A stretch of DNA of 59,275 nucleotides from an uncultured Candidatus Saccharibacteria bacterium (lineage in GTDB: Bacteria; Patescibacteriota; Saccharimonadia; CAILAD01; GCA-016700035): positions 1-59,275 of the forward strand of contig CAZYFT010000004.1 in NCBI GenBank assembly GCA_964646575.1, written 5' to 3'. This document shows, one piece after another, positions 11,742 to 53,753 of the stretch. Positions within the stretch are counted from its first letter, which is position 1; each line of letters opens with the position of its first letter. Under the pieces are notes generated by a model. The model was not told where the DNA came from. It searched no databases and saw only the letters and a program-made list of their open reading frames with translations. A program made the translations under genes and the position numbers.

Positions 11742-12080
11742 ATGAATCCAAATCAACCCAATCAACCAGATATTTTCACCAGACTCGGTATGGCTTCGGC
11801 TAGTGATGAGCAAAAACAGCAGCTCGCCGAGCAGCTCGCTGACCTCACGATGACTCGCGTGCTCAGCAAAGTTTCAGATCAGATTACTGAAGAACAGATG
11901 AATGAACTTGAACGGCTGATCGATACTGGTGGAGATCAGGTTGATGATCGACTGCGGCAGCTCGTACCGAACTATGATGAGTTGATTGCGTCTACCGCTC
12001 AGGAAGTTGGGGATCAGCTTGTTGCTGATCAACAGGCTGTACTTGCTAAAATGCGCGAAAAAGCCGCTCAGCAACACTAA
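11742..12080 (+). CDS. Small acidic helical hypothetical protein (112 aa)
   Basis: ORF 17 nt after the previous stop, preceded by AAGGAG. The sequence is rich in E/D/Q with helical repeats. No family was confidently recognised. Confidence 0.7.
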   Translation: MNPNQPNQPDIFTRLGMASASDEQKQQLAEQLADLTMTRVLSKVSDQITEEQMNELERLIDTGGDQVDDRLRQLVPNYDELIASTAQEVGDQLVADQQAVLAKMREKAAQQH

Positions 12081-12101
12081 GAATAATCAATAAAAACATT
12101 G

Positions 12102-12132
12102 ACCATACTATATATTTATGGTATGGTTTTTG
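12102..12132 (+). terminator. AT-rich hairpin plus T-run after the 112-aa gene (overlaps a possible TTGACC-N17-TATGGT promoter)
   Basis: ACCATAC (12102-12108) pairs with GTATGGT (12121-12127) around a 12-nt loop, followed by TTTTT. Confidence 0.5.
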
Positions 12133-12178
12133 TGTTATTCGCACCTGACAATTTGTCCCGAGAAAAATGAGGCACAGC

Positions 12179-13753
12179 ATGCGTGACGACAAGCCCGGAA
12201 TGAGCTTGGACGAATTCGCCGAGCTCGACCCAGAAGAAGTTGCCGCCCAGTGTGGTGGCGCAACCCCGGCCGAAGATGGCCCCAACCCCGGCATTGCCGG
12301 AGAACAGGAGGCCGTCATGGCCGATACCGAAGAGACCACCGATCCCGCTCCGTCCGAGGAGCCTGCCGGGCGCAGAGGTGCACAGCGCGCCTCAGATCTC
12401 CTCCCGATCTTGCGCCAGGCCGATCCGTCACTGGATGACGCATCGGCTCTCGAGCTGCTTCAGGAGATCTTGAACGAAGACCGTGATGCAGGCAAGCTGC
12501 CGCGTGTCATCAAGAGCTCCTCGGAGTACGTTCCGGCCGCGCTCGAGCCGAAGGTTCGAGCGTTCGTTGCCGCGAACGGCACCGACGATTCAGGCGCAGA
12601 CAATCCGGCCCAGCCGGCTGTCGCTGATGGCACTGACTCGCCGCCCTTCGATCAGGACGCTCCTGGTGCTTCGGCGCCCGATGGCGATCCGGTCGACAGC
12701 GGCGAGACGCCTCCAGCTTCGGAGCCCGAAGCCACTTCGGTGGAGTCGGCGGTCGAAGCGAGCGGTGAGAGTCGGCTTGACTCCTACCGCCAGGCTTTGC
12801 GACCGTTGCTCGAAGCATCTGTCGCAGCTCGCGAAAACGGCACGCGCGACGAAGCAGATGCTGCCGTCTGGAGGCTCGCTGAGGCCATCTTCGATCAGGG
12901 GTTCACTCTATATCGAGAGCTGAGGCAGTCGGATGAAGAGGCCGAGAAGCGTCTGTTCCAGCTTCGTATCGAAGAAGGGCAGACCGTACCGCTTTCGGTC
13001 ACCAGGGATGAGATCGCAGCCAATCCCGATTTGCGTGAGCAGGTCTGGTACTACCGGACAGCGGTTCGGTCCACCCTGCGAGTCTTTGAAGGCCACGAGA
13101 CCATCCAGGAGCTTCTGGAGGATTTCACCTGGCCCTCGGAGTCTCACTTCCGACGTCAGCAGAGTGCGCGTTCTCGCAACCACTCACGGAGTGCCACGCG
13201 CACAGCGGTTCCGGGGCTTCCACCTCGACCCGCATCCGAGGAGCCGGCGAGCAGCTCGACGGACGACACACCCCCTTCCGAGCCCGTGACGGGTGTCGCA
13301 AACACCGGTGCCCCGAAGGAGCTCGAGGGCCCTCCCACTCAGGAGGTTCCCGTTGTTCGGACGAGTGAGGGGCGTCGTACGGTCAGCAGCAGTGATGCTC
13401 CCGAGCCGGAGCGCCATGTGGTGCGGGGTGGTGGCCGAGCAGCCATGCGCCCCTCATCGAAGGCACCAGCTGCGGCGCGTCAATCCAGCGATCCGGTCGA
13501 AGAGCCGGACGCTCAGCAGCCTCAGGCCGATGGACCAGCCGACAGTGCAGATCGTGATGCGAGTCGCGGTAAGCGGAAGTCGGACGAGTCCTTCTTGGTC
13601 GAACTGCCGGATGAGGTTTTCGAGGCTGCCGTCAAGGCGGTGATCGAGGATCCTGATCCGGAGCAGTGCTGGGCATTCCGCTCGGCAGACGCAGTTCGTG
13701 CTGAGGCGGAGCGGCGCATCCTTGTGGAGTCGGGTCGGCTGAGCGCCGTCTGA
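12179..13753 (+). CDS. High-G+C island gene 1: acidic, Pro/Ala/Ser-rich, largely disordered hypothetical protein (524 aa from ATG 12179)
   Basis: Strong G/C bias at codon position 3 in this frame. GAGG (12169-12172) sits 6 nt before ATG 12179; the track start at 12167 is also possible. No domain was recognised. Confidence 0.7.
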   Translation: MRDDKPGMSLDEFAELDPEEVAAQCGGATPAEDGPNPGIAGEQEAVMADTEETTDPAPSEEPAGRRGAQRASDLLPILRQADPSLDDASALELLQEILNEDRDAGKLPRVIKSSSEYVPAALEPKVRAFVAANGTDDSGADNPAQPAVADGTDSPPFDQDAPGASAPDGDPVDSGETPPASEPEATSVESAVEASGESRLDSYRQALRPLLEASVAARENGTRDEADAAVWRLAEAIFDQGFTLYRELRQSDEEAEKRLFQLRIEEGQTVPLSVTRDEIAANPDLREQVWYYRTAVRSTLRVFEGHETIQELLEDFTWPSESHFRRQQSARSRNHSRSATRTAVPGLPPRPASEEPASSSTDDTPPSEPVTGVANTGAPKELEGPPTQEVPVVRTSEGRRTVSSSDAPEPERHVVRGGGRAAMRPSSKAPAAARQSSDPVEEPDAQQPQADGPADSADRDASRGKRKSDESFLVELPDEVFEAAVKAVIEDPDPEQCWAFRSADAVRAEAERRILVESGRLSAV

Positions 13754-13762
13754 TTTCACTTC

Positions 13763-13799
13763 GGGCGATCTGGGTAACTCCAGGTCGCCCTATTTTTTT
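13763..13799 (+). terminator. GC-rich intrinsic terminator of island gene 1
   Basis: GGGCGAtCTGG (13763-13773) pairs with CCAGgTCGCCC (13780-13790) with one mismatch, followed by TATTTTTTT. Confidence 0.75.
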
Positions 13800-13843
13800 G
13801 TTAACTTTCTTTGGCATAAGCATATTGACTTTACAAAAAACTA

Positions 13844-13872
13844 TTGCAAAATTATGCATTTTATGCTATTAT
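13844..13872 (+). promoter_or_regulatory. Sigma-70 promoter TTGCAA-N17-TATTAT in a ~25% G+C spacer, driving island gene 2
   Basis: -35 TTGCAA at 13844-13849 and -10 TATTAT at 13867-13872, preceded by an A-rich UP-like stretch. It is followed by a ~60-nt GC-rich leader with a GGGAGGGG SD before ATG 13939. Confidence 0.6.
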
Positions 13873-13938
13873 GCAACGGTATTCGTACCTCAACCCGGGT
13901 GTTGAAAAACCCCGGCACAACACACCCCGGGAGGGGAC

Positions 13939-14676
13939 ATGGCAAACCGAACCCAACGAACCGCACACGCGGAGGTGCTGCTCGCGCAGCGTCACCGTGC
14001 CGAGCACGACGACATCACTCGCCGCCTCGGCGAGGCGGAGGGCAAGCTGCAGCGTCTCGACGCTGCCGTCCAGGACCGTGAGGCCCAGCTCGATGCCGCC
14101 ACCAGCGAGTGGCTCAAGGGCATCGTGCGCGAAGAGCTCGCGGAGCTCAATCGCGAACGTGAAGACGTCAGGGGCCAGGTCTCCGGCTTCCGGCAGGAAC
14201 TCCAGCAGTTCGGCGAGCGGCTCGGAACCGTCGAGAACAACGTTCTTGGCCTCGGCAGTCGCATCGAAGGGCTGCAGGTCCACTCGGAGGCCCACGCCAC
14301 CGCGATCTCGCGGCTGGAGGCGGCCAACGGCTGGATCCCGCTCATCGGTGGGGTCATCACCGCGCTCGTCGTCTACTTCTTCATCGAAGGAGTGGAGTGG
14401 GTGCGAGGTGATCGCTTCACCACACAGAACCAGTGGTTCTGGGCAGTGCTCATCGGTGCCATCGTCGGCATCGTGCTGACCTGTCTGCCCGGTAACGGGC
14501 GCAGCATCATCACGCGTTCCACCGCCTCGGCGGGCGGAAACGTGGTGGTGGCACCGCAGCCTCCGGCAGATCAGCCGGCACCAGCTGCGGGCGTCACGCC
14601 TCCGCCACCCCCTCCTGCCGGGAGCCAGTTCTCGACTGTGCAGGCTGCAGCCGTAGCCAGTGCGTCGACGAACTGA
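13939..14676 (+). CDS. High-G+C island gene 2: coiled-coil protein with two TM helices and a poly-proline tail (245 aa)
   Basis: Almost every codon ends in G/C. It has N-terminal heptad-like repeats, TM segments WIPLIGGVITALVVYFFI and FWAVLIGAIVGIVLTCL, and a C-terminal PPPPPPAG. No domain was recognised. Confidence 0.8.
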   Translation: MANRTQRTAHAEVLLAQRHRAEHDDITRRLGEAEGKLQRLDAAVQDREAQLDAATSEWLKGIVREELAELNREREDVRGQVSGFRQELQQFGERLGTVENNVLGLGSRIEGLQVHSEAHATAISRLEAANGWIPLIGGVITALVVYFFIEGVEWVRGDRFTTQNQWFWAVLIGAIVGIVLTCLPGNGRSIITRSTASAGGNVVVAPQPPADQPAPAAGVTPPPPPPAGSQFSTVQAAAVASASTN

Positions 14677-14683
14677 CCCCGCG

Positions 14684-14728
14684 CTTCCTGGGGTCTTCGG
14701 ACCCCAGGAAGACACACTTTTGGTTTTA
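14684..14728 (+). terminator. Perfect 12-bp GC-rich hairpin terminator of island gene 2
   Basis: CTTCCTGGGGTC (14684-14695), loop TTCG, GACCCCAGGAAG (14700-14711), then ACACACTTTTGGTTTTA. Confidence 0.75.
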
Positions 14729-14844
14729 TTCTGGCCTTGAACGTGAACCTCTTGTAAAACAGAGATGAACGCTTGAAGTCAGAACCAGAACCTGAACATC
14801 CATCAAGAGTCGCATTCGCGACACCGACCACAAGGAGGTGCGCG

Positions 14845-15888
14845 ATGAGCGCTCCCAACTCTGCCCAGCAGAGGTTCTTCTTCAGCATCATCGGCGCTGC
14901 TGCGCTGTTGTTGTTGCTCTTCCCGGTCATCAAGGTGATCGCCGGCCCGCCCGACGCGGGTGCCGACGACGACCCGCCTGCGACCACGGCTCCAGCCGGC
15001 ACGTGCGGCGTGAACCAGGTGTTCTTCGCTCGTGAGACGGAGGGCAACCAGTTCGGCCCGGCCGCTCCGGAGGACCCCGCCAACGTGGCGGCAACGCAGG
15101 CGGACTTCGCCTCGCGGCGCTGCTCTGATGCGGCACTCCTCACAGGCGACTCTGAGTACCTCTTCAACGAGTTCTCGGACCCCGCCACCCGCGTGCAGAA
15201 GACCGTCGACCTCATGTCGAACCCGGACGCCTGGGCCCTCACCGAGATGCGCTTCCAGGCGCGCCTCAACGAGGCTACCAAGGTGGAGATCGTCGAGATG
15301 AGCGGCGCGTACCAGACCATGGACATGGAGGACAAGGGGAGGATCATCCCCGAGGTCTACCAGGTTCCGGTCGAAGCCGCGCCGTTCAAGGTGATCCGCT
15401 TCACGTTCCCGGACGGGACCGTGAAGCAGTTCAAGCTCAATTGCGGGTACCAGCCCGTGGAGCAGAACTTCCCGCCTTCGGTTCCCGGCAAGGGCGCTCC
15501 GCCTGCGCCAAACCAGCCCTCGCGGCCGGTGACGCCAGGCAAGCCCGGACGGCCGACCACGCCCGTGACAACGCCCGAGGCTCCCACTACCACTTGGAAG
15601 TGCCAGCAGGCAGTCGCGAACGGCCAGACGTGCGGTTCGGGTGGCAACAACCATCCTTCCCACGTGGACACCGAGCCGCTTCCGCCCACTCTGGACTACG
15701 TTCCGGGGAACGCTGAGGACTCGGCGGCGGATCCGGCTGACGGGGTGATCATCCCGCCGGGCGGCAACATGAGCCCGGGCGACACCAACGGGACGACCGG
15801 TGGCAACACCGGCTTCGACAACCCGGAACCGACCGAGGCCACGCCTCAGCCGGTCAACGAGCCCGGAGACCCTGGGGCGCCGGCCTAG
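14845..15888 (+). CDS. High-G+C island gene 3: membrane-anchored or secreted protein with a Cys-containing central domain and a Pro/Thr/Gly-rich tail (347 aa)
   Basis: AAGGAGG (14832-14838) lies 6 nt before ATG 14845. The N-terminus is QQRFFFSIIGAAALLLLLFPVIKVIAG (anchor/signal) and the tail is PSRPVTPGKPGRPTTPVTTPEAPTTT. The track ORF start at 14773 (TTG) lacks an SD. Confidence 0.75.
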   Translation: MSAPNSAQQRFFFSIIGAAALLLLLFPVIKVIAGPPDAGADDDPPATTAPAGTCGVNQVFFARETEGNQFGPAAPEDPANVAATQADFASRRCSDAALLTGDSEYLFNEFSDPATRVQKTVDLMSNPDAWALTEMRFQARLNEATKVEIVEMSGAYQTMDMEDKGRIIPEVYQVPVEAAPFKVIRFTFPDGTVKQFKLNCGYQPVEQNFPPSVPGKGAPPAPNQPSRPVTPGKPGRPTTPVTTPEAPTTTWKCQQAVANGQTCGSGGNNHPSHVDTEPLPPTLDYVPGNAEDSAADPADGVIIPPGGNMSPGDTNGTTGGNTGFDNPEPTEATPQPVNEPGDPGAPA

Positions 15889-15921
15889 CCGGTAGTTCCC
15901 AAAGGGTGTTCAGGTTCATCA

Positions 15922-15960
15922 GGGGCGGACGTGCAAGCGTCCGCCCCTTCAACTTTTATT
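15922..15960 (+). terminator. GC-rich intrinsic terminator of island gene 3 (right edge of the island)
   Basis: GGGGCGGACG (15922-15931), loop TGCAAG, CGTCCGCCCC (15938-15947), then TTCAACTTTTATT. Confidence 0.7.
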
Positions 15961-16004
15961 GAGTCAAATCTGTTGAAACCAGCATATTTAGCTGACAAAA
16001 ACTA

Positions 16005-31689: not shown

Positions 31690-32520
31690 ATGTCGCATAT
31701 TTTGCAGCTAGATAAGCTAGAAGATGATTCTGCTCTATTCGCTCTAGCTCTCGGTCCGGCAACCCGTACGAGTATCGCGCTCTGTGGCGGTAGTCCACGT
31801 GGATTTGCTGACATTTCGCTGCTTTTTGGTGTCTGGCAGGCTCTTCGTTTACCAATTTCATTGGTTGTACCAGCTGGTGTGGAGCGCTTTTTGCCTGGTG
31901 GGATCCCTCAAGCATCAATGGACGGCGATGTCCGTAAACAGCGTGAGCTCACAGCTTGGCAATTGATCGATAGTGCTGGCTTTGTGGTTGTGGGGCCAAA
32001 CATGCAGCTCACGAGCTCTGAACAGGTGATGTACGCTCGTTTACTACCGAATACTACTGTGCCGGTAATACTGACAGACGAATCTCTCTCGTTGTGGAGT
32101 ATTGATTCGGGCATTCAAGGGAATACTCACATTACTTGGCTTGCAAGTACAGATCGCGTTGAGAAAATGCAGTTTACGCAGGGGCAGAAAATTATTAAGG
32201 CACGGGGAATTTTTGGAGTTGTCGAATTTTTACGAAATCTTCAACTACAACAAGACTTCGTGATGCTATATGATGCGGTGAATCTGTATAGCTACATTCC
32301 TGCTAGCGACATATTGATACATACCCCACTACAAGGATCACAAAAACAGGCTCGGAATTTGGTGCTAGCTCTCTTGCCGGTTACAGTTTTTGCTCGTTCT
32401 CGTGGGGTAGCATTACAGGAGCGACTGAGGGTATTGCACTATCTTTTTAGTAGTATCGGAGAAGATACTATAGGCGATCCAGCTGTGTGGCCCGCACAGA
32501 TAAAGCGGGCATTGTCTTAG
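31690..32520 (+). CDS. Hypothetical protein (276 aa)
   Basis: AGGAGGG SD before ATG 31690. It has a Rossmann-like alternation of strands and helices but no diagnostic motif. Confidence 0.6.
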   Translation: MSHILQLDKLEDDSALFALALGPATRTSIALCGGSPRGFADISLLFGVWQALRLPISLVVPAGVERFLPGGIPQASMDGDVRKQRELTAWQLIDSAGFVVVGPNMQLTSSEQVMYARLLPNTTVPVILTDESLSLWSIDSGIQGNTHITWLASTDRVEKMQFTQGQKIIKARGIFGVVEFLRNLQLQQDFVMLYDAVNLYSYIPASDILIHTPLQGSQKQARNLVLALLPVTVFARSRGVALQERLRVLHYLFSSIGEDTIGDPAVWPAQIKRALS

Positions 32521-33803
32521 ACGGCTTCAGGGAGATAGTTTCGGGCCGGTGTCTGCGAGGGGTTTGGTGTAGGGGCTGTGCTTCTCGTAGCTTCATCTCC
32601 TCCCATACCGATAAAACGAAGGATTTGATCAAAGAATGATGGTGCATTGCCAGGCAGTGCGGCGTCATTTGTGTTATCGGCAGCAGCAATTTGGGGCTGT
32701 TGTTCGGGGCGAGTCGGAGAAGGCTCAATTTGGTTGGCGGTGATGATGAGTCGTTTCCAGCTCGTTCCGGGAGGAGTACAGGTGATAAGAGTGAGAATGG
32801 GGTCGGTAGTAGGTTGCAATACGGAGATCTCGGTCGGGGCGACGATTTTCTTGCCAGCTACCTGATACACGTAGCGTTTTTTCTGATAGTTCACTTGGAT
32901 TTGATCGCCAGGTTCGAGCTTTTCAAGCAGTGCAAAGACAAACTTATAATTACCCGGCTCCCACCAGTCGTTTGAAGAGTGTCCAACAATAACTGAATTA
33001 CTAGGCTCTCCTGGTAGGGCCGTGCCGGCGTAGTGTACAACACCATTGCGTAGCGCATTTTGGATTGATTCTTCGGCAATAGATGGTTCAAAAATGATCG
33101 GTGCGTTTACATTGAGCTTAGGGATAATGATCACATCTGGCGAATCAACAGGTTGGGCGGCATTTGTGGAGGCAACGGGTGAAACGGTCGGTGTAGCAAC
33201 AGGTGCGGTGGCTGTTTGAGGTGGGGTGGCGCTAAAGACATTGCAGATAGCATCAATTTTTGTTTGGTAGCAGAGTTGTACGCCAATAGTGCCAAAATTA
33301 AAGACAAACATAAAGACCGCAAATGAGACTAGGCCCACTCCGGCATAGCGAAGATTTTTGCCAGAGAATATCGAGCCCAGTTTTAGCTTGAGGGCAATCT
33401 TGCCAAGTAGCGTGGTGGCTTTGGTTTTTTCTTTTTCTACCTGTAAGCCGTGGGCGGTGAAAGTGTCAAAATTAGGTGAGAGATTGAAGCGAATTTTTGG
33501 CAGTGCTGCTGGGGCCTGTGGAGCCGCCGGCAGAGGGGCTTCAACCGGGGCGCCAATTTCGGCTAAATCGACCCTATGGGCGTTGCCTTGCGGGTTGCGA
33601 AATACGGGTATCTCCGGGCTGGCCTGAGCGGTTGAGGGTTTACTGACGGGCTTATCTGGTAGGGTTGGCGTTGCAGCTTCCGAAAAACTCATCGACTTTG
33701 GTGCCGGGGTGGAGTTGGAAAGATCACTAAAATTCAGCGTTCCGTGCTGCTTGGCCGGATCCGCCGATTGATCTTTTTTGTCATTAGGGTATGGTGTAGA
33801 CAT
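32517..33803 (-). CDS. Sortase-family transpeptidase with a long Pro-rich N-terminal region and a TM anchor
   Basis: Catalytic His context VIVGHSS, Cys context LTLITCTPPG and TM YAGVGLVSFAVFMFVFNF. This gives a sortase fold at the C-terminus. Confidence 0.85.
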   Translation of the reverse strand: MSTPYPNDKKDQSADPAKQHGTLNFSDLSNSTPAPKSMSFSEAATPTLPDKPVSKPSTAQASPEIPVFRNPQGNAHRVDLAEIGAPVEAPLPAAPQAPAALPKIRFNLSPNFDTFTAHGLQVEKEKTKATTLLGKIALKLKLGSIFSGKNLRYAGVGLVSFAVFMFVFNFGTIGVQLCYQTKIDAICNVFSATPPQTATAPVATPTVSPVASTNAAQPVDSPDVIIIPKLNVNAPIIFEPSIAEESIQNALRNGVVHYAGTALPGEPSNSVIVGHSSNDWWEPGNYKFVFALLEKLEPGDQIQVNYQKKRYVYQVAGKKIVAPTEISVLQPTTDPILTLITCTPPGTSWKRLIITANQIEPSPTRPEQQPQIAAADNTNDAALPGNAPSFFDQILRFIGMGGDEATRSTAPTPNPSQTPARNYLPEAV

Positions 33804-45082: not shown

Positions 45083-46066
45083 ATGAAAGCTTTGAAGCGC
45101 CTCTTAACGACACTGTTATCGCTTACTATCACAAGTCTTATTGCGGTTTGGAGTATTTTAGCCATAGTTGGGTCTGCTACGGCTATTAATAAACTTGTTG
45201 TGGCGAGTGGTGGCTATGAGACAGCAGCCACTCAAACGAGAACGGCGATGCTGTCGAGTGCAAATATCCCTGAACAATATCGATCTATAATTACGCAGGC
45301 ATTTGAAAACAGCATAACAGCACAGCAAATGGAGACGATTGTGCAGCCACTGCTGGTAGATATTGTCGGTTGGCTTGATCAGCCAGCTGGTACGCCGGCT
45401 CCACAGCTTGTGGTCAATTTGAGTCCTCTTAAGCAGCGACTAGAAACCGAGTTGGCTCAAGCACAGATCTCAGAAATCGAAAAAACTGCCCTTGTGGCTC
45501 AGGTTGGCAAACAGATACCTGATCAGCTCGATCTAGCGCGGGCTCAGGGCTTGGCCACCCAGCAAGGTGTTGAGGCACAGGCTACTCCCCCGGCATCTGA
45601 GGCAGTTACGGTGCTCGGAACATTTAAGGGTGTGTATGCAGCTTTACAGACTTTTTCTCTAGTTGGTTTGGCTGCCATGCTTGCCCTACTGGCTGGGGTA
45701 ATTGTTCTGAGCCGGCGCGACGGTCGAGCCATGCTTCGACGGCCAGCTTGGGCGTTTATTTCTGCTGGGCTACTTGCAACTATCATATGGATTGTGAGTC
45801 GGGTCGTGCAAGTTGACCAAGCTCAGCCGACATTGGTAATTGCTTTGAGTGTAGCTCGCGAAATATCAGGTATTGTGGTTTGGTATAGTTTGGCCTCCAT
45901 AGTTTTTGGGGCGGCACTCTACGGGTTGTCGTTTTTATTAAGGTCAGCCGCGGTAACATCAGGTGCTACTCCGATTGCAGTACCGCCGACCACTAATATA
46001 CCGGTGCCGACCACAGTCCCTGGTAGCTCCCAACAAAATGGAGTCAAGGAGAATAATCTAAGCTAA
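45083..46066 (+). CDS. Hypothetical membrane protein (N-terminal TM, extracytoplasmic helical domain, three C-terminal TMs, Pro-rich tail)
   Basis: MKALKRLLTTLLSLTITSLIAVWSILAIVG, plus hydrophobic blocks at ~45.65-45.95 kb. Confidence 0.7.
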   Translation: MKALKRLLTTLLSLTITSLIAVWSILAIVGSATAINKLVVASGGYETAATQTRTAMLSSANIPEQYRSIITQAFENSITAQQMETIVQPLLVDIVGWLDQPAGTPAPQLVVNLSPLKQRLETELAQAQISEIEKTALVAQVGKQIPDQLDLARAQGLATQQGVEAQATPPASEAVTVLGTFKGVYAALQTFSLVGLAAMLALLAGVIVLSRRDGRAMLRRPAWAFISAGLLATIIWIVSRVVQVDQAQPTLVIALSVAREISGIVVWYSLASIVFGAALYGLSFLLRSAAVTSGATPIAVPPTTNIPVPTTVPGSSQQNGVKENNLS

Positions 46067-48111
46067 ACGATTCCGGTGCGATTTTTCCAGCGTGGTTTAC
46101 GTAACTCGTACTGAATAAGTGACGCAAACAGCATAATCATAATGGCAATATTGGTTATGGGTGCTGTTATTTGTAGCAGGAGGTCTTGTTTGGCCTCCAG
46201 GGCAATGAGTATACGTGTGAGCATGGCAGCACCTAGGGCAATTGCGATCGAGATGAGGTGTACTTGCGTGCCAACTATAAGACTGTATATAAGTACAATT
46301 ACTGGCGTTGAGAATACAAACGTACCGGCCAGTACCAGGAAAATTGTGAGCGGAAAATGAAAACGCAGGGCTGGATAAAAGCGTTGAAGATTATCGTCAA
46401 TAATCCCCCTGAGTCCAAGGTGGTTTTGACTGGTCGCTAGATCGCTGGCTCGAAACAATTGTGCATGTAAGCCTTTATGACGAGCGCGATGGAAGAGCTC
46501 CTGATCTTCTAGCGGGCTTGCCCTTACGTCTTCAAAGCCACCAAATCTACGTATTTTTGCGCTATCGAAAGCAATAATGGAGCCATGAGCAGTCGAACGT
46601 TCAGGCGCATGCTCTTGCAGGAATCCGCTGGGGTACGCCGCCAGCATGAGATATTGGTTGTGGCTGAGGATAGTTTTTTGAGCCAACGATTTGTTTTGGT
46701 CGGCAGAAAGTAGAGACAGCACATCGAGCTTTTCTTGTTCCAGGAGCATGGCAATTTGAGCAAGTGTATTGGGTAGGAGAACGGTGTCAGCGGAGATGAG
46801 CACCGCGTATTCCCCGGTAGCTTGCTTTAAGAGCTGGTCGGCTGCCCAGGCATCTACACCCCAGCCAGGTTCAATCGGATCAATGGTAATGATACGCAGC
46901 CGTTTATCGGTGAAATTCTCGGCAATTTTGCGCGTGTTGTCTTCACTACCGAGATCTGTGAAGAGCACTTCAAAATCGGGATAATTTTGTCCTAGTGCAG
47001 CTAGAAGTGTAGAGGAAATATTTTCGGCCTGATTATAGGCGTGCGTCATGATAGTAATACGCGGCCATTCATCGAGCCGCTGTGTTTTAGGACGACGAAA
47101 AACCACGAAATTATGCGCAATCAGTAGAATTTGAGCAATAGAGAATAGGGTGCAGAACGTGAGTATGTAGTCGATGCGTCCGGGGCCCAAATTAAATGGA
47201 TCGGCCAGATAGAGAATGAGCTGGGTGAGCCAAAACCCAACTACGCCGTTGAGCCACATAAAGTTGGTCCAGGCTCGTCTAAACTGCTTCGATTGCGCAT
47301 CTGATGAATATTTAAGAAACATGGCAGCATTTAACGCGTAAATCCCCACTAAGAGTCCAGCCATGAGTGAAGATGGAAGATACACTATGCCCGCTAGTAT
47401 GGCGCTTGCAATATACAGCCAGAAGGCAAAGCGAATGGTACGGCGTGCTCCCCACTGCGTGGCGATTGAGCGAATATTGGCAGCTCGGTCCGGAATAATA
47501 TCTTGAATGGCACCGAGTGCGTGGGAGGCCATCCCCCAGAGGAAGAAAGCTATCGTGGGAAGCCAAGCGATTGTTGCTTGGGGGCTCACTATAAAGCCAA
47601 AAACGGCCGGTAGTACAAAGTGCAAGGATGAGTTTATTGAGTCAAGCACCGGGATTTCTTTAAAACGCAGTCCCTTAAGTGAGTAGGTTACCGCCAGGAT
47701 TACGGTAAGGGCAAGCACGATTTTTCCGTTTTGGCCGATGAGCGAACCTAGCCATACGAGACTGACGATGTTTGTTGCAATGATTGCTCCCCACAAGGCG
47801 CCTCGGGCTTGCGGGGCAACGATCGACCCCTCCAGGCTGCCTTTGCGTGGGTTTTTGAGGTCGGACTCGTAATCATAAATATCGTTTACGCCATATACCA
47901 ATAAGTTGTAGGGCAGTAAGAAATACACCAGGCCGGCCCAAAATGATTGATCGAGCTGGCCGCCCGAGAGTAAAAAGGCGATAGCAAATGGGAAAGCGGT
48001 ATTAACCCAGCTAATTGGCCTTGATGCGGCGAGTATTTGGCTGAGTTTTTTTAGAGCCGGCGTTTGGCTTGTGGCCGGTTTTTTGTGATGCTGGTGATTT
48101 GCTTGTGTCAT
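46063..48111 (-). CDS. crtEb: Fusion protein: UbiA-type carotenoid prenyltransferase (lycopene elongase CrtEb/LyeJ-like), GT2 glycosyltransferase and C-terminal TM helices
   Basis: N-half: SRPISWVNTAFPF and VNDIYDYESDLKNPRKGSLEG (NDxxDxxxD), as in lycopene elongases. C-half from ~47.06 kb: ITIMTHAYNQAENISSTLLAALGQNYPDFEVLFTDLGSEDNT (GT2 fold). The start is ATG 48111 or 48150. Confidence 0.78.
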   Translation of the reverse strand: MTQANHQHHKKPATSQTPALKKLSQILAASRPISWVNTAFPFAIAFLLSGGQLDQSFWAGLVYFLLPYNLLVYGVNDIYDYESDLKNPRKGSLEGSIVAPQARGALWGAIIATNIVSLVWLGSLIGQNGKIVLALTVILAVTYSLKGLRFKEIPVLDSINSSLHFVLPAVFGFIVSPQATIAWLPTIAFFLWGMASHALGAIQDIIPDRAANIRSIATQWGARRTIRFAFWLYIASAILAGIVYLPSSLMAGLLVGIYALNAAMFLKYSSDAQSKQFRRAWTNFMWLNGVVGFWLTQLILYLADPFNLGPGRIDYILTFCTLFSIAQILLIAHNFVVFRRPKTQRLDEWPRITIMTHAYNQAENISSTLLAALGQNYPDFEVLFTDLGSEDNTRKIAENFTDKRLRIITIDPIEPGWGVDAWAADQLLKQATGEYAVLISADTVLLPNTLAQIAMLLEQEKLDVLSLLSADQNKSLAQKTILSHNQYLMLAAYPSGFLQEHAPERSTAHGSIIAFDSAKIRRFGGFEDVRASPLEDQELFHRARHKGLHAQLFRASDLATSQNHLGLRGIIDDNLQRFYPALRFHFPLTIFLVLAGTFVFSTPVIVLIYSLIVGTQVHLISIAIALGAAMLTRILIALEAKQDLLLQITAPITNIAIMIMLFASLIQYELRKPRWKNRTGIV

Positions 48112-48406
48112 GGCGAGAGTAAAAATAGTTCCACAGTGTGGGTCCTGCATACAATGCTACCACCAAGTAGGCCAAATCTTCTATCGGCCAGCTGACTATT
48201 TTAAATCCGAGCACCTTTGCCCAATCATACCGTACGATCGCGAGGCTCGTGAGATAGGTGTTAAACACTACCATCATGAGATATAAGGTAATTCCGGCAA
48301 GCAATAGATGTTTTCTGGGTTTTGGGTTGGGATCTAAGCGTTGCACAACAAGAGCTGCGATTAAAATAAAAACACCGTTTAGCAGAATATAGGTTAGCTT
48401 TTCCAT
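48011..48406 (-). CDS. crtYf: Lycopene-cyclase-domain small membrane subunit (CrtYf-like)
   Basis: 131 aa with ~3 TM helices and a PxE(E/D) motif (WPIEDLAYLVV). The start overlaps the upstream stop (TAATG). The last ~33 codons overlap the crtEb frame. Confidence 0.72.
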   Translation of the reverse strand: MEKLTYILLNGVFILIAALVVQRLDPNPKPRKHLLLAGITLYLMMVVFNTYLTSLAIVRYDWAKVLGFKIVSWPIEDLAYLVVALYAGPTLWNYFYSRHDTSKSPASQKTGHKPNAGSKKTQPNTRRIKAN

Positions 48407-48750
48407 TATTTGTACCTCGAAACGTAATAGCGTTTGCTGGCCGCATCAATAATGAGCACGGAGTACACAAGTAACACAAGAAAGAAAATTTCTTCGATTG
48501 GGAGGTTTGGTGTACCAAGGTTTATACCTAGGGTATAGTGTGGATTTGTATAGAAGATGCCCAACAGTATTCCGGCAATATCCCAGACAAGGAAAAAACC
48601 TACCAACGTGGCGATGGTGGCGAGTGTTGCTTTTTTTGCTCTCGCATTCTTCCAGGCTACAAGTTTCCAGCGTATATCGCAGAGGATAAGCCCTGCGATG
48701 CTTACCAGCAAGATGACGGCATACGTCCATTGGGTCTCGAGTAGTTGCAT
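48406..48750 (-). CDS. crtYe: Lycopene-cyclase-domain small membrane subunit (CrtYe-like)
   Basis: 114 aa with 3 TM helices and a PxEE motif (LPIEEIFFLVLL). Confidence 0.8.
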   Translation of the reverse strand: MQLLETQWTYAVILLVSIAGLILCDIRWKLVAWKNARAKKATLATIATLVGFFLVWDIAGILLGIFYTNPHYTLGINLGTPNLPIEEIFFLVLLVYSVLIIDAASKRYYVSRYK

Positions 48751-48760
48751 ACATCTATAG

Positions 48761-48766
48761 TATACT
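48761..48766 (+). promoter_or_regulatory. -10 box TATACT (overlapping TATAGT) 8 nt upstream of the crtI ATG, in the divergent crtY/crtI spacer
   Basis: TATAGT at 48756-48761, TATACT at 48761-48766, ATG at 48775. Confidence 0.35.
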
Positions 48767-48774
48767 GCTTTCTA

Positions 48775-50298
48775 ATGAAAAAGCAGACGAAGAAAAAGAC
48801 TCAGCGCACTGCAATTGTGGTTGGCGCCGGTATTGGCGGGTTATCGGCCGCTGCTCGCCTGGCTAAAGATGGTTGGAAGGTCACCATACTTGAGAAAGAG
48901 GCGTTGATTGGTGGTCGAGCTCACCGTATCGATCAAGATGGCTACCGGTTTGATACGGGCCCGACAATCTTGATGATGACTGATGTTCTCTACGATACCT
49001 TTGCCTATTGTGGTAAGAATTTTGACGACTACATCGACCTTCAGCAGCTTGAGCCAAATTATCAGGTTTTCTTCCCCGATGGACAGACAATCGAGGTAAG
49101 CTCAAATTTGCCACGGTTTGCCAAGGAATTAGCAAAAATTGACGAGAAAGCTCCGGAGCAGTTTTACCGTTATTTTGCTGACGTGGCAAAAATCTATCGC
49201 CTAGCTCGCAGCCAGTTTATTGATAAAAACTTCGACAAACTCACGGACTTTATTAATGTAAAGGCTGGTCTTCAGCTGGCTAAGGGTCGCGGCCTGTATA
49301 GGCTCTATAATTTTGTATCGCGTTATTTTACCGACCCACGTTTGCGTCAGCTTTTTTCATTCCAGTCTATGTATCTTGGTGTGACACCCTATGAAGCTCC
49401 GGCTGTGTATTCTGTGGTGAGCTATATGGAGACTGGACTGGGCATTTGGTACCCCAAGGGCGGTATGCATGCGCTTCCGCGGGCCTTCGGTAGGCTTTGT
49501 GAGGATTTGGGTATTGAGATTCGCACGAAAACGCCAATTGACGAGATCCTTGTTGAAAACAAACAGGCGGTTGGGGTGAGGTTATCTGATGGAACGCGCC
49601 TCGATGCGGATATTGTTGTTTCAAATGCTGATCTCACCTATACCTACAAGAAGTTACTAGCACCCGAGCATCGCAAGCGCTATCCGGATCAAAAAGTCGA
49701 TAAACTCAAGCAAGCTTCTAGCGCGATGTTGTTTTACTGGGGAGTTGATCATGATCTCGATGGACTTTTGCATCACAATGTGTACTTTTCCGAAGATTTT
49801 AAGCATAATCTCGAAGAAATTTTCCATGAGAAGATTCTGCCAGACGATCCGGCTTTCTATTTGTATATTCCAACCAAGACTGACCCAAGTTTGGCGCCAA
49901 AAGGTAAGAACGTTCTCTATGTTCTGGTACCGGTGCCAAATCTTACGGGAGATGTTGATTGGGATAAAGGCGTCGAAAAGATTCGCAAGCGTGTCTTGGA
50001 GCGCATGAAGACTGTTTTAGGTCAGGATGTAGAAAAGCATATCGAGACTGAGGCAATATTTACTCCGGAGGATTTCTTGACGCGATTCAATCTCACAGAT
50101 GGTTCGGCTTTTGGTTTGAGTCACCACTTTTTTCAGTCGGGTTATTTCCGGCCACATAACGTGAGTCGCGAAGTGAAGGGATTGTATTTTGTTGGTGCCT
50201 CGACCTATCCCGGTAGTGGTGTACCAATGGTTACCTTATCTGGTAAGCTAGTTGCAGAACGGATTGAAACAGATGTCAAAAGTGGAAAAATCACCTGA
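48775..50298 (+). CDS. crtI: Phytoene desaturase
   Basis: FAD-binding fold AIVVGAGIGGLSAAARLAKDGWKVTILEK and C-terminal YFVGASTYPGSGVP. About 507 aa from ATG 48775. Confidence 0.9.
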   Translation: MKKQTKKKTQRTAIVVGAGIGGLSAAARLAKDGWKVTILEKEALIGGRAHRIDQDGYRFDTGPTILMMTDVLYDTFAYCGKNFDDYIDLQQLEPNYQVFFPDGQTIEVSSNLPRFAKELAKIDEKAPEQFYRYFADVAKIYRLARSQFIDKNFDKLTDFINVKAGLQLAKGRGLYRLYNFVSRYFTDPRLRQLFSFQSMYLGVTPYEAPAVYSVVSYMETGLGIWYPKGGMHALPRAFGRLCEDLGIEIRTKTPIDEILVENKQAVGVRLSDGTRLDADIVVSNADLTYTYKKLLAPEHRKRYPDQKVDKLKQASSAMLFYWGVDHDLDGLLHHNVYFSEDFKHNLEEIFHEKILPDDPAFYLYIPTKTDPSLAPKGKNVLYVLVPVPNLTGDVDWDKGVEKIRKRVLERMKTVLGQDVEKHIETEAIFTPEDFLTRFNLTDGSAFGLSHHFFQSGYFRPHNVSREVKGLYFVGASTYPGSGVPMVTLSGKLVAERIETDVKSGKIT

Positions 50299-51361
50299 AC
50301 TAGCTGCTGCCATTGCCCATGTAAAGGGGTTGACCGATCGCGAGTTGGCAATTTTCTTTGACTTGCGTGCTTCCGAAGCTGGTAAATATGATGCGCAATA
50401 CAAACGTTTGCTCTTAGAGATGAAAAAATTCTCATTGCGTGGTGGTAAGCGTTTGCGTCCATTTATGACCTATCTCGGCTATAAGCTGGGTGGCGGTAAA
50501 AATGATGAGGCTTTTGCACGGCTGGCACTAGCCTGGGAGGTATATCACCTCGGAGCCCTCATTCATGACGATATTATGGATCAGGATGATCGCCGTCATG
50601 GTGGACTCAACGTTGCAGGGGTGTATGAAAAGCAGCTCAAGCGCAAGTTTTCGGATGAAGTTGCCCATAAGCACTCACTCAATGCTGCCTTAATGGCCGG
50701 CGATGCTGCACTTTTAATGGCTGTGGAGCTCATTACGACCATTCCGACCGAACCGGAGACTCGCGACCGATTACTATCTGACTTCTTAAAGATGCATTTT
50801 AGATTGGTGGGGGGACAGTTTGTGGAAGATTTTGCAGCTTTAGAGCCCAAGCTGACCCCGCAGCAAATTCGTAAGATATATGTAAATAAGTCCGGTAATT
50901 ATTCTATGGTGGCTCCGCTGCGATCAGGCGCAGTATTAGCGGGTGCGAACGATACGATTCTTTCAATACTCGAGCGCTATGGTCTTCATGCAGGTGTAGC
51001 ATTTCAGATTACTGATGATCTGTTGGGGATGTTTGGATCGGCGAAAGAAATTGGGAAGCCAACAATTACAGACCTTCGTGAAGGTAAGCGCACGCTACTT
51101 ATGCACTATGGTGAAAAGTTCTCAAATGAGGCCGATCGAGCAGTGTTGGCAGCAAAATTTGGCAATCCAAATGTAAATACTCAAGACTTAAAGTTAGTAC
51201 GAAAGCTTTTGACTGACAATGGAGCGAAGGCCAAGACGATTTTTACTGCACAGGCTGAGGCAGACGCTGCGCGCAAAGCAATTTCAAAATTGGCATTGCC
51301 TGGAGAACTGCCAAAATTATTTGATGATCTAACGCAGTATCTCACTGGAAGGAGCAAGTAG
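50273..51361 (+). CDS. crtE: Polyprenyl (geranylgeranyl) diphosphate synthase
   Basis: First Asp-rich motif LIHDDIMDQDDRRHG and second motif FQITDDLLGMFGSAKEIGKP. The start is ATG 50273 or GTG 50282, overlapping the crtI end. Confidence 0.88.
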   Translation: MSKVEKSPELAAAIAHVKGLTDRELAIFFDLRASEAGKYDAQYKRLLLEMKKFSLRGGKRLRPFMTYLGYKLGGGKNDEAFARLALAWEVYHLGALIHDDIMDQDDRRHGGLNVAGVYEKQLKRKFSDEVAHKHSLNAALMAGDAALLMAVELITTIPTEPETRDRLLSDFLKMHFRLVGGQFVEDFAALEPKLTPQQIRKIYVNKSGNYSMVAPLRSGAVLAGANDTILSILERYGLHAGVAFQITDDLLGMFGSAKEIGKPTITDLREGKRTLLMHYGEKFSNEADRAVLAAKFGNPNVNTQDLKLVRKLLTDNGAKAKTIFTAQAEADAARKAISKLALPGELPKLFDDLTQYLTGRSK

Positions 51362-51366
51362 ACTAC

Positions 51367-52212
51367 GTGGAGGGCAGCTTGAAACAGAGTTATCAAGCGT
51401 GTCGCCGTATCACCGCTCAAGCCAGTTCTACATTTTATTTAGCCTCGCTATTATTTGAGGGCGCCACTCGCCGAGATATCCAGGCCCTCTACGCATTTTG
51501 TCGTGTTGCCGATGATATTGCTGATTCTACAACCTTATCGTCGAGTGAAAAGCGTAGCAAGATTTCGGCAATGCGAAACGCAATCATACAGCGCAAGACC
51601 CCAGATGTGGAGCCAGCAATTTGGGCGGCAGTTTGGCATGTGAGTGATGAGTATGTGTTGCCGCAAGCTGAATTGCTTGAGGTTTTGGATGGCGTTGAGT
51701 CGGACATATCGTTCAGTCAACCAAAGACACTCCGCGATTTAGACACCTACAGTTACTATGTAGCGGGGGTGGTGGGCATTTTAAGTGCCCGTATTCTGGG
51801 GGCGACAAGCAAGCGTGGCTTTGAAGCTGCCAAAAATCTCGGCATCGCCATGCAGTACACGAATATTATTCGCGATGTGGCGAGCGATACTTCTCTTAAG
51901 CGCACGTATATTCCACTGAGCTTAGTTAAGAAATATAAGCTAAACAGTCGTGACGCCACACAGAGTGATCAGCTTCATCTTGCAATCGCTGAACTTTCAA
52001 ACCGTGCTCAAAGCTTTTATGACTTAGCGGCGCCCGGTATCACCGATATTCCTACTCGACACCGTAAGCCTGTCCAGGTTGCTTTTGAGTTGTACCATGG
52101 CATCCTCGAACGAGTGAAGCAAAAGCAGTATAATGTGAGTATCGGTCGTGTTCGCCTTAACCGCTTGAGCAAACTACAGGTTGTGTGGCGGGTGTACACC
52201 GGCCAATCATAA
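51367..52212 (+). CDS. crtB: Phytoene synthase
   Basis: FCRVADDIADS and YTNIIRDVASD motifs of the squalene/phytoene synthase family. GTG start 6 nt after the crtE stop. Confidence 0.9.
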   Translation: MEGSLKQSYQACRRITAQASSTFYLASLLFEGATRRDIQALYAFCRVADDIADSTTLSSSEKRSKISAMRNAIIQRKTPDVEPAIWAAVWHVSDEYVLPQAELLEVLDGVESDISFSQPKTLRDLDTYSYYVAGVVGILSARILGATSKRGFEAAKNLGIAMQYTNIIRDVASDTSLKRTYIPLSLVKKYKLNSRDATQSDQLHLAIAELSNRAQSFYDLAAPGITDIPTRHRKPVQVAFELYHGILERVKQKQYNVSIGRVRLNRLSKLQVVWRVYTGQS

Positions 52213-52216
52213 ATTT

Positions 52217-53632
52217 ATGCCGAGTCAGAATTCATCTCCAAGTTCACAGAGCCCTCGCGCCAAGCGCATGGTGACAGTTGACGGTGTCCGTTATTCGCTC
52301 AATACCGGCGATAAGCTTGGGCCAGCAGTTGCGCGACGCGTAGAGGTAACGACTAGGCCACCGTCTGCGTCACGGCGTGCCGCCAGAGTGGGCGATAAAC
52401 CGCTACCAAAAGCCGTTCGAGTAACTGGCCACCAGCAGGCCGTCATGCATCCCGACCCTAAGTTGGCTGCGGCTCGCGTATTGCACCCTCATGGCGTCAC
52501 ACATCCAGCCCTTCCGGTTTCGCATCAGATACAAAGCCAGCAGAAACAGGGTTTGTGGAGGAGTGTAATCGCGCCATCGCTTTCTGAAGGGCGTACTAAA
52601 AAAGGCATACTGGCAAGTCTTGGTATAGTTTTACTTTCACCAGTCACCTGGCTCTATGTGCTATTGCCAGCACTCGTGTTTACTCTGGCCGAGTTGCAGC
52701 AGCAGCCAATTGCCGAGCTGTATGGGTCGACGGTGCGACAGCTGCAGGCAACCAATCCAGCCACGGCATTTTGGGTAGTTTTTGGGGCGGCAATATTTCT
52801 GGCAATTTTATGGTTTGCACGTCACTTATGTTTGATCGTAGCGTATGGTATTTCGGCTCGCAAAATTGATCATCGCGCAACCAGTGCACGACATTTATGG
52901 CTGCAAGCTGCCGGAAAAATTTGGCGCTTTGTAGGCATAGCTATTTTTGATTTTCTGTTTGTCGCCGCCGCGCTGGTTGCTTCAGGGTTGGTAATAAGCT
53001 ATGCCTATGGTGGCCGGATCGATTTGGATGCTAGCTGGAGCTTGATTTTTAATCTTGGTCTCATGGTTGCTCTCATGCTAAGTTGGCTTGTCGCGACACA
53101 TCGACCAATTACTCGAGTAATGTTAGCCCTGACAAACCGTCCGGCCAGCTTTATTATTGTTCGTTCGTTTGGGCTTATTTTTCGCAATTGGGTACGCTCT
53201 TTAGCCCTAGGCTTTTTCTGGCTTTTTATGGCAGGAATCACAGCTGCCCTTGTGGCTGGAATAAGCTGGGCGACGGTGGTATATGGGTTGCTGCAAATTA
53301 CCACCACTACTGGTAGGGCTGTATTATTTGTGTTCGCGGCCAGCTTAGTGCTGTTTGTGCTCTCGCTCTTTACTATTTGGTCGGTGAGTTATTGGCCGCG
53401 AGCCTATCACTGGCTGGCTCGAAGGGCCTATCCAAAGCAAGTCTCCCAGATGATGAGTGACGCTCAGCACCAAAAAACGCGTAAGCGAGTGATTGGTGAA
53501 GTGGTGATTTTGCTCACCCTATTTGCGGTTCTGATGTCGATTATATTCTTTGTTGGTAAGCCGTGGTTCGTGGGATTGTATGAGCGTAACGTACAATCTT
53601 TGCCTTCTTCTGCGTTGGAGCTGATTAAGTGA
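52217..53632 (+). CDS. Hypothetical polytopic membrane protein with a basic N-terminal region, 5 nt downstream of crtB
   Basis: ATG 52217, ~140 aa of basic or low-complexity sequence, then at least 7 TM helices. No motif was recognised. Confidence 0.7.
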   Translation: MPSQNSSPSSQSPRAKRMVTVDGVRYSLNTGDKLGPAVARRVEVTTRPPSASRRAARVGDKPLPKAVRVTGHQQAVMHPDPKLAAARVLHPHGVTHPALPVSHQIQSQQKQGLWRSVIAPSLSEGRTKKGILASLGIVLLSPVTWLYVLLPALVFTLAELQQQPIAELYGSTVRQLQATNPATAFWVVFGAAIFLAILWFARHLCLIVAYGISARKIDHRATSARHLWLQAAGKIWRFVGIAIFDFLFVAAALVASGLVISYAYGGRIDLDASWSLIFNLGLMVALMLSWLVATHRPITRVMLALTNRPASFIIVRSFGLIFRNWVRSLALGFFWLFMAGITAALVAGISWATVVYGLLQITTTTGRAVLFVFAASLVLFVLSLFTIWSVSYWPRAYHWLARRAYPKQVSQMMSDAQHQKTRKRVIGEVVILLTLFAVLMSIIFFVGKPWFVGLYERNVQSLPSSALELIK

Positions 53633-53753
53633 TGTTTCTGGCGGCTGTTTTTGTACGCAAGGGATTGACTTATACAGATAAAATAGGTAGAGTAGTAAGG
53701 CAAAGCCCCGGCGGCTTTTTTAAGTTGCAAGCAAGTTTTGAAAAGTTGATAGT

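Follow-up and report, generated by a model that had tools for sequence, protein, structure and literature searches.

A predicted pathway for glycosylated cyclic C50 carotenoids in Saccharibacteria, with a putative elongase-glycosyltransferase fusion

We analyzed a 59,275-nucleotide (nt) stretch of DNA from the Saccharibacteria (contig CAZYFT010000004.1), here called the window, and describe a cluster of predicted carotenoid genes that it carries. Judging from the sequence, this cluster is likely to be native to Saccharibacteria and long resident in them, and to specify a glycosylated cyclic carotenoid with 50 carbon atoms (C50).

The open reading frames (ORFs) of the window were searched with Pfam and NCBIfam profiles. 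The original prediction, made without database searches, had proposed six enzyme functions, and the profiles confirm all six families in the same places: two small lycopene cyclase subunits, a UbiA-type elongase, the phytoene desaturase CrtI, an enzyme like geranylgeranyl diphosphate (GGPP) synthase, and one like phytoene synthase. The proposed UbiA-type lycopene elongase stands as a CrtEb-type UbiA domain, but the other half of the same protein, a family 2 glycosyltransferase (GT2), had been overlooked. The genes form two divergent operons. On the plus strand, the order is crtI, ids, crtB and a membrane-protein gene; on the minus strand, it is cyc1, cyc2 and the UbiA-GT2 gene. The enzyme genes are as follows, with lengths in amino acids (aa).

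46063..48150, minus strand: UbiA-GT2 fusion protein, ORF of 695 aa; Pfam UbiA 82.8 bits and Glycos_transf_2 (PF00535) 56.6 bits
47203..48081, minus strand: predicted CrtEb-type lycopene elongase (UbiA) domain of the fusion, residues ~24-316; NF009608
46075..47103, minus strand: predicted membrane-anchored GT2 glycosyltransferase domain of the fusion, residues ~350-692; Pfam and fold
48011..48406, minus strand: cyclase subunit 2 (CrtYf-like), 131 aa, motif PIED; Lycopene_cyc 32.4 bits
48406..48750, minus strand: cyclase subunit 1 (CrtYe-like), 114 aa, motif PIEE, first gene of its operon; Lycopene_cyc 28.7 bits
48775..50298, plus strand: phytoene desaturase CrtI, 507 aa; TIGR02734 crtI_fam 544.5 bits and Amino_oxidase 135.9 bits
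50273..51361, plus strand: short-chain trans-prenyl diphosphate synthase, IdsA/CrtE-like, 362 aa; polyprenyl_synt 139.9 bits
51367..52212, plus strand: phytoene synthase-like enzyme (SQS_PSY), 277-281 aa; SQS_PSY 213.7 bits

The Pfam gathering score of Lycopene_cyc (PF18916) is 27 bits. The NCBIfam cut-offs are 217 bits for NF009608, 205 for NF009516, 238 for crtI_fam (TIGR02734), 39.4 for TIGR03462, 278 for HpnD, 379 for HpnB and 600 for CruG.

The fusion protein and its partner enzymes

Homologues of the fusion protein are about 670 aa long, and its probable start is therefore M14, at 48111. The UbiA domain passes NF009608 with 315 bits and fails the LyeJ-type model NF009516 with 148.6 bits. 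NF009608 is also passed, with 417-475 bits, by the elongases in crtE-crtB-crtI-cyc-cyc-UbiA operons of Glutamicibacter and Clavibacter. We read residue conservation from an alignment of 76 UbiA-GT2 fusions. In this alignment, the Asp-rich UbiA motifs N89-D90..D93..D97 and D217..D221 are invariant or nearly so. In the GT2 half, D399 is nearly invariant, and D455 (followed by T456) and S545 (within SPLED) are invariant. Pfam, the alignment and the predicted fold all point to a GT-A domain in which the acidic residues that bind the nucleotide sugar and metal in GT2 enzymes are conserved. The domain scores below the curated equivalog cut-offs of known carotenoid and hopanoid GT2 enzymes. Its best NCBIfam match is HpnB (103 bits, with almost the full model aligned and the score far under the cut-off), and CruG gives 49 bits.

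AlphaFold2 gives the fusion as a single confident model, with a mean predicted local distance difference test score (pLDDT) of 91.1 and a predicted template-modeling score (pTM) of 0.89. Folds were compared with the PDB by using Foldseek. The UbiA half matches archaeal AfUbiA bound to dimethylallyl diphosphate (DMAPP; 4TQ4, template-modeling (TM) score 0.68), and the top match of the GT2 half is the membrane mannosyltransferase PcManGT (6YV7, E 4e-9). A phmmer search with the UbiA domain found no match among PDB sequences, and kinship to solved UbiA proteins is visible by fold only. In the model, a nine-helix UbiA fold is followed by a tenth transmembrane helix (324-350) and a basic RRPK stretch, and three helices follow the GT2 domain. 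The tenth helix and the RRPK stretch, combined with the known topology of UbiA proteins, imply that the chain would return to the cytoplasm. The model thus suggests that the UbiA and GT2 active sites both face the cytoplasm. Because the elongase is fused to a sugar transferase, the pigment is probably glycosylated, and the fusion is a candidate C50-carotenoid glycosyltransferase coupled directly to its elongase.

The fusion protein has 217 detectable relatives, and nearly all of the best 120 share the two-domain architecture. In total, the UbiA-GT2 fusion occurs in at least ~200 proteins, whose named members belong to Saccharibacteria, Chloroflexota and Dormibacterota. Named relatives of the window protein are from Candidatus Saccharibacteria and then, at 30-37% identity, from Dormibacterota and Chloroflexota; for Dormibacterota, the evidence consists of sequence names, not genomic context. 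One member of the fused family (P0110) is named "flavuxanthin-forming" by the Joint Genome Institute (JGI). In the literature, we found nothing beyond one report (PMC9948471) on an elongase-glycosyltransferase fusion or on C50 carotenoids in Chloroflexota or the candidate phyla radiation.

Other arrangements occur in the elongase family. P0112 is a cyclase-UbiA-GT2 triple fusion of 735 aa, and Paenarthrobacter has a cyclase-UbiA fusion of 405 aa. The family also includes proteins of ~515 aa and ~852 aa in which the UbiA domain is C-terminal (these further architectures are those of P0112, P0123, P0192 and P0227).

The two small cyclase subunits carry the PxEE and PxED motifs that had been noted earlier, and the start/stop overlap TAATG was likewise read in the sequence, at 48406, where the start of cyclase 2 uses the A of the cyclase 1 stop codon. 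With TIGR03462, cyclase 1 passes the cut-off (52.5 bits) and cyclase 2 falls under it (34.7 bits). A cyclase gene upstream of the elongase is kept in the Saccharibacteria, Actinomycetota and Chloroflexia loci, and homologues of cyclase 2 are present in L004 and L005, two of the comparison loci introduced below. The locus shows two features of a cyclic C50 pathway, namely two cyclase-domain subunits with PxE(E/D) and, beside them, an elongase of the CrtEb group. By homology, the gene set looks complete for such a pathway, as had been proposed, although two of the enzymes predicted to supply lycopene, the prenyl synthase and the SQS_PSY protein, belong to the expected Pfam families but reach no NCBIfam equivalog cut-off.

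The genes for cyclase 2 and the fusion protein are read in different frames and overlap by 101-140 nt (window 48011-48150). This overlap contains runs of A6 and A7, and either frame encodes a basic, low-complexity tail. It is kept in L004, and amounts to just ~14 nt in L005. We considered whether a frameshift or an error in the assembly might have linked cyclase 2 with the elongase, and rejected this because the two-frame layout persists in L004 and in three independent assemblies; the overlap is therefore taken as real. The L004 proteins are 59% (cyclase 2) and 84% (fusion) identical to those of the window. Public gene calls on L001 and L002 leave out cyclase 2, so automated pathway reconstruction would score the pathway as incomplete. 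This is an annotation gap in the public gene calls of this lineage.

On the plus strand, the CrtI length of 507 aa also appears in the gene calls of L001. The best solved relative of the prenyl synthase is the GGPP synthase of Corynebacterium glutamicum (3LK5, 117 bits), and an actinobacterial farnesyl diphosphate (FPP) synthase (8F8F) also matches. Its second Asp-rich motif, DDLLGMFG, had been described in the original prediction as a variant common in actinobacterial enzymes. This agrees with the structures, because 3LK5 has DDLLGVFG and 8F8F has a motif of the same type. At positions -4 and -5 of the first Asp-rich motif, the window enzyme has Ala and Gly, 3LK5 has Ala and Cys, and 8F8F has Trp at -5. 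By the chain-length rule, small residues at these positions favor products of C20 or longer, and the window enzyme probably forms GGPP. The SQS_PSY protein can be read as CrtB from its family together with its context. The gene for it is far more divergent than its neighbors, with 42-45 bits on L006-L008 versus 738-767 bits for CrtI. This divergence may reflect a gene replacement inside this type of cluster.

Host, gene order and history of the cluster

The host belongs to the Saccharibacteria. We searched for the closest copy of the fusion protein among GTDB representatives (one genome per species), and found it, 83% identical, in a Saccharibacteria metagenome-assembled genome (MAG; L004). 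Another copy lies on a Saccharibacteria contig of 797,647 base pairs (bp) with the same secE-nusG synteny (L006; JAXLZU010000001.1), and an identical fusion protein with the same neighbors is present in three other public assemblies. A further genome with the cluster has a contig of 916,044 bp that encodes P0295. The remainder of the window holds housekeeping genes: PBP2, GreA, class I LysRS, SerRS, SecA, RF2, MurA, FtsEX, CTP synthase, MreB and sortase. No rRNA gene was found within the window.

To compare gene orders, we mapped the window proteins onto 83 loci. The 63 loci from Actinomycetota, which include Micrococcales, Propionibacteriales and others, have the collinear order ids-crtB-crtI-cyc-cyc-UbiA with an unfused elongase of ~290 aa wherever the contig is long enough. 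In contrast, the window and L001-L008, which we call type A, have divergent operons and a fused elongase, always beside secE-nusG, with fusion-protein identity down to ~48%. A second group from Saccharibacteria and Patescibacteria, type B (L015, L017, L022, L032, L036, L041, L059 and L070), is unfused and collinear as in Actinomycetota. Chloroflexia loci are collinear with a fused elongase, in the order cyc-cyc-[UbiA-GT2]-crtI-crtB. The arrangement of cyc-cyc-[UbiA-GT2] beside crtI and crtB is thus common to Saccharibacteria and Chloroflexia.

A profile of the window GT2 domain gives 300-347 bits over the full length on the Chloroflexi fusions. On separate GT2 genes beside crt genes of some Actinomycetota, it gives only 26-54 bits, over the N-terminal nucleotide-binding part. 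Such separate genes stand beside the C50 operon in L039 (8854-10236) and L073 (9385-10188), downstream of the elongase in L043, L044 and L066, and upstream of ids in L019, L021, L037 and L074. We regard them as candidate unfused carotenoid glycosyltransferases.

Neighbor-joining trees with bootstraps were built for the UbiA domain and for CrtI. In the LyeJ-rooted UbiA tree, the fused clade of the window is monophyletic (86%), as are the Chloroflexi-type fused clade (100%) and type B (79%). Two sequences with JGI LyeJ-type names oriented this tree; most outgroup and intermediate sequences are nameless. Unrooted, a split that places type A and the Chloroflexi type on one side and type B and Actinomycetota on the other has bootstraps of 97.5% (UbiA) and 100% (CrtI), and the window clade is never nested within Actinomycetota. 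The window UbiA domain shares 41-50% identity with actinobacterial elongases. Compared with the proteins of Actinomycetota, type B and Chloroflexi, the window CrtI is 32-35% identical and CrtB is 22-29% identical. These data suggest that the locus represents a lineage that Saccharibacteria share with Chloroflexota and Dormibacterota and that is distinct from the operon type of Actinomycetota. The original description of the cluster as "actinobacterial-style" therefore holds for the pathway, but not for the lineage or for the gene order, which is divergent and includes a fused gene.

The G+C fraction of the cluster is 0.478, versus 0.484 for the remaining window without a GC-rich island described below. 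Cluster and flank agree in the window, and equally in the four further Saccharibacteria loci of type A that were checked (0.38-0.49). Six type B loci differ from their flanks by 0 to 7 points, and the clusters of Actinomycetota and Chloroflexia have values of 0.70-0.74. In two type B loci, L070 and L022, the G+C content of the cluster exceeds that of the flanks by 3-8 points, a possible sign that the cluster was acquired later there. We also compared six window genes with those of L004 and L005. For all six, the proportion of nonsynonymous differences (pN) is 0.07-0.38, and that of synonymous differences (pS) is saturated at 0.65-0.88. Because pS is saturated, pN is low and the G+C content matches that of the flanks, we conclude that the acquisition is old and that the genes are under purifying selection. 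Together with the conserved synteny, this upholds the earlier view that the composition is native and that any transfer would be old.

The predicted pathway and alternative interpretations

Family membership, conserved catalytic motifs, architecture, synteny, distribution and purifying selection can be read from the data, whereas the chemistry set out below (the substrates, a C50 end product, the type of ring, the sugar and the sequence of the last steps) is deduced. The prenyl synthase would supply GGPP, two molecules of which the SQS_PSY enzyme would join to form phytoene. CrtI would then desaturate phytoene to lycopene. The UbiA domain would add a DMAPP-derived C5 unit with hydroxylation to each end of lycopene, in the way that CrtEb forms flavuxanthin, and the two small cyclase subunits would close the rings as a heterodimer. 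Finally, the fused GT2 domain would use a nucleotide sugar to glycosylate the newly formed terminal hydroxyl group or groups. Since two cyclase subunits are present and no CruF-like family was found among the window ORFs that we scanned (those of at least 150 aa), the cluster follows the logic of CrtEb/CrtYe/CrtYf.

The closest characterized system is that of C. glutamicum, in which crtB, crtI, crtEb and crtYeYf suffice for decaprenoxanthin synthesis (PMC3598387). The natural product there is glucosylated, and the genes for this glucosylation were still unidentified in 2012 (PMC3598387). The C. glutamicum operon, crtE-cg0722-crtB-crtI-crtYe-crtYf-crtEb (PMC3598387), has the same six enzyme functions as the window. 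It likewise has a cyclase pair directly upstream of the elongase and an uncharacterized membrane-protein gene inside. The window elongase falls in the same NCBIfam equivalog group as the elongases of actinobacterial operons. However, its relatives in the sampled operons are not joined to a GT2 domain, the window CrtI shares only ~33% identity, and CrtB only 22-25%, with their actinobacterial counterparts, and the window membrane protein has no detectable family kinship. The sarcinaxanthin cluster of Micrococcus luteus, reported by Netzer et al. in 2010 to have a separate glycosyltransferase gene, crtX, shares the logic of a C50 elongase, a heterodimeric cyclase and a dedicated glycosyltransferase.

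Fusion of an elongase to a partner also has precedents. Dietzia sp. CQ4 has cyclase-elongase fusions of the LbtBC type. In these and in the 405-aa Paenarthrobacter proteins, the cyclase is N-terminal, whereas in the window protein the GT2 domain is C-terminal. Fusions from Chloroflexota and Dormibacterota (L009, L012, L013 and L020; P0103, P0113 and P0119) have the same two-domain architecture as the window protein, with an overall identity of only 30-34%, and are uncharacterized. The Chloroflexia clusters also have cyclase genes upstream and crtI and crtB adjacent, and they group with the window in the main split of the UbiA and CrtI trees. However, they are collinear with ~74% G+C, and the window cluster is divergent with ~48%. 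Like the window GT2 domain, PcManGT, HpnB and CruG combine a GT-A fold with membrane helices at the C terminus and an acceptor of the lipid type located at the membrane surface, but none of them is fused to a prenyltransferase.

Other functions could be proposed for this locus. One that we consider unlikely is that only a C40 product is made (lycopene, or a bicyclic carotene via a CrtYc/CrtYd-like cyclase) and that the UbiA-GT2 protein serves the synthesis of a prenyl-phosphate or cell-envelope glycolipid. The generic JGI family names, "4-hydroxybenzoate polyprenyltransferase" and "glycosyltransferase involved in cell wall biosynthesis," would suit this idea, as would the lipid-phosphate-type acceptors used by the nearest solved GT2 fold. 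Also, small subunits of the Lycopene_cyc family are known to form C40 cyclases. Yet the UbiA domain passes NF009608, as do elongases within actinobacterial C50 operons. Moreover, in each of Saccharibacteria, Actinomycetota and Chloroflexia the elongase gene stands beside a pair of cyclase genes, and in P0112 and the Paenarthrobacter proteins of 405 aa the elongase and a cyclase domain are parts of one polypeptide. Rather less probable is a pathway to an acyclic C50 carotenoid of the bacterioruberin type, as has been proposed for Saccharibacteria and Patescibacteria of Lake Baikal on the basis of lyeJ, crtD and cruF matches in a Saccharibacteria MAG (PMC9948471). In the LyeJ-CrtD-CruF pathway of haloarchaea and Arthrobacter, a UbiA-family enzyme likewise elongates lycopene to C50, and the window CrtI scores 337-450 bits on CrtD-type models, under their cut-offs. 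However, that pathway uses an elongase of the NF009516 subgroup, requires CruF and lacks cyclase subunits. JGI-named LyeJ proteins pass NF009516 with 224-251 bits, a model that the window domain fails, and the window has two cyclase subunits and, among its scanned ORFs, no CruF-like family.

The remaining two alternatives are more remote. A C30 locus (CrtM/CrtN/CrtQ-like) or a squalene/hopanoid locus (HpnC/D/E/B-like) is suggested by the best NCBIfam matches of two components, namely HpnD (194 bits) and HpnB (103 bits), and staphylococcal C30 pathways are known to use a GT2 enzyme, CrtQ. We find this very improbable, because both scores are far under the cut-offs of 278 and 379 bits, HpnE reaches 48 bits on CrtI versus 544 for crtI_fam, and neither HpnC (a second synthase) nor a squalene-hopene cyclase was found among the scanned ORFs. 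The small residues at -4/-5 of the prenyl synthase also resemble a GGPP synthase rather than an FPP synthase, and an elongase and cyclases are present. Finally, the contig could have been mis-binned, or could recently have been transferred, from an actinobacterial host that makes carotenoids. In favor of this, Actinomycetota are the hosts of Saccharibacteria and include many producers of C50 carotenoids (PMC9296517), and the UbiA domain has the identities to actinobacterial elongases given above. We reject it on composition, synteny and trees. The G+C fraction is 0.48 in the window and 0.70-0.72 in actinobacterial clusters, the synteny of the secE, nusG, rplK and rplA genes extends to Saccharibacteria contigs as long as 797 kb, and both the trees and the CrtI identities separate the window from Actinomycetota. 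Mis-binning in particular is excluded for practical purposes because the relatives are Saccharibacteria with the same neighbors and a housekeeping context; the original prediction had already thought a co-binned actinobacterium improbable.

Several points weigh against a glycosylated cyclic C50 product. The fused family is biochemically uncharacterized, and the GT2 acceptor is deduced from the fusion itself, because its best named relatives, HpnB and enzymes of the CrtQ/CruG type, match weakly. Heterodimeric lycopene cyclases for C40 and C50 substrates are inseparable by sequence alone. The prenyl synthase scores under every NCBIfam equivalog cut-off, so that GGPP is assigned by family, context and the chain-length rule, and the SQS_PSY protein is under the cut-offs of both HpnD (194 bits) and the CrtB models (121-137 bits). 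In the neighbor-joining trees, the deep order of clades is poorly resolved. No gene for the precursors isopentenyl diphosphate (IPP) or DMAPP was found among the scanned window ORFs, and freshwater Saccharimonadia are reported to encode only a C10-C20 isoprenoid module (PMC9166423).

Accepting the glycosylated cyclic C50 carotenoid as the preferred product, we tentatively extend the proposal, in a form that is possible but that we would not bet on: a clade of episymbiotic Saccharibacteria may build this carotenoid via one elongase-glycosyltransferase polypeptide, from IPP/DMAPP or prenyl diphosphates derived from the host. A host source would be needed because the class apparently lacks a pathway to C5 isoprenoid units. 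If this is true, the pigment would span the membrane of a cell unable to synthesize lipids itself, as a stabilizer or photoprotectant, and the fusion family would represent a non-actinobacterial, possibly older, branch of C50 carotenoid biosynthesis.

A seven-gene pigment pathway is a costly trait in a minimal genome of ~0.8-1 Mb whose owner is thought to depend on its host for lipids and precursors. It was fair to call such a pigment unexpected in these organisms, although C50-type genes had already been noted in a Saccharibacteria MAG (PMC9948471). The earlier bacterioruberin reading of the Baikal genes (PMC9948471) does not fit the cluster type described here. In type A genomes, the pathway is vertically inherited and under purifying selection, and it raises a sharp question about the origin of the C5 units. 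The original prediction had also seen relevance to rhodopsin-bearing Saccharibacteria, which were reported by Jaffe et al. without blh (PMC9296517). We find no support for this link. A C50 route uses up lycopene without making beta-carotene, and is therefore not a source of retinal precursors, and neither blh nor rhodopsin was found among the scanned window ORFs.

Expression signals, neighboring genes and other features of the window

Three further features lie within or next to the two operons.

48751..48774, no strand assigned: divergent spacer with the palindrome AGTATACT; sequence reading
52217..53632, plus strand: polytopic membrane protein, 471 aa, starting 5 nt after crtB; no family
53702..53718, plus strand: terminator-like hairpin with a trailing T-run, in the gap that separates the membrane-protein gene from secE; consensus scan only

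Because crtI most likely starts at 48775, the whole distance between the divergent start codons is only 24 bp. A TATACT hexamer is present on either strand of this spacer, ending 8 nt 5' of the ATG. Reading of the sequence revealed no Shine-Dalgarno sequence in the 24-bp spacer before either start codon. Similar -10-like hexamers lie ~3-10 nt before both ATGs in L004 (3671-3696), L005 (7281-7304) and L006 (7329-7381), and the hexamer of the L005 spacer is palindromic (ATTATAAT). The pattern is kept in relatives with fusion-protein identity down to ~48%. Hexamers this close to the ATG without a Shine-Dalgarno sequence, repeated in three loci, suggest that the two operons are probably transcribed divergently from the spacer as leaderless mRNAs.

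The membrane-protein gene probably ends the plus-strand operon. It had been placed 5 nt after crtB, which is correct, but its product has 471 aa rather than 472. The protein has zero Pfam or NCBIfam matches and just 17 homologues, all close, and the gene is syntenic in L004, L005 and L007. Its AlphaFold2 model is of moderate confidence (pLDDT 73.8), and Foldseek found no PDB match at E <= 0.001; the best hits are CysZ-like and PNS1-like transporters (TM score 0.25-0.56). Downstream of the terminator-like hairpin are secE, nusG, rplK and rplA.

Elsewhere in the window, the class I lysyl-tRNA synthetase (2805-4361) and the sortase (32517-33803) lie in a housekeeping context. The GC-rich island at 11900-16000 has a G+C fraction of 0.60-0.65, versus ~0.48 in the rest of the window. 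Its ORFs (12167-13753, 13939-14676 and 14773-15888) encode Pro/Ala/acidic-rich proteins of no family, and it is flanked by a family-less protein of 1015 aa and a DUF11 surface protein. Searches of the island found no Pfam match, no tandem repeats and no blastn match in plasmid and phage collections. A high-GC donor may have supplied the island as foreign DNA; alternatively, it may be a set of compositionally odd surface-protein genes.

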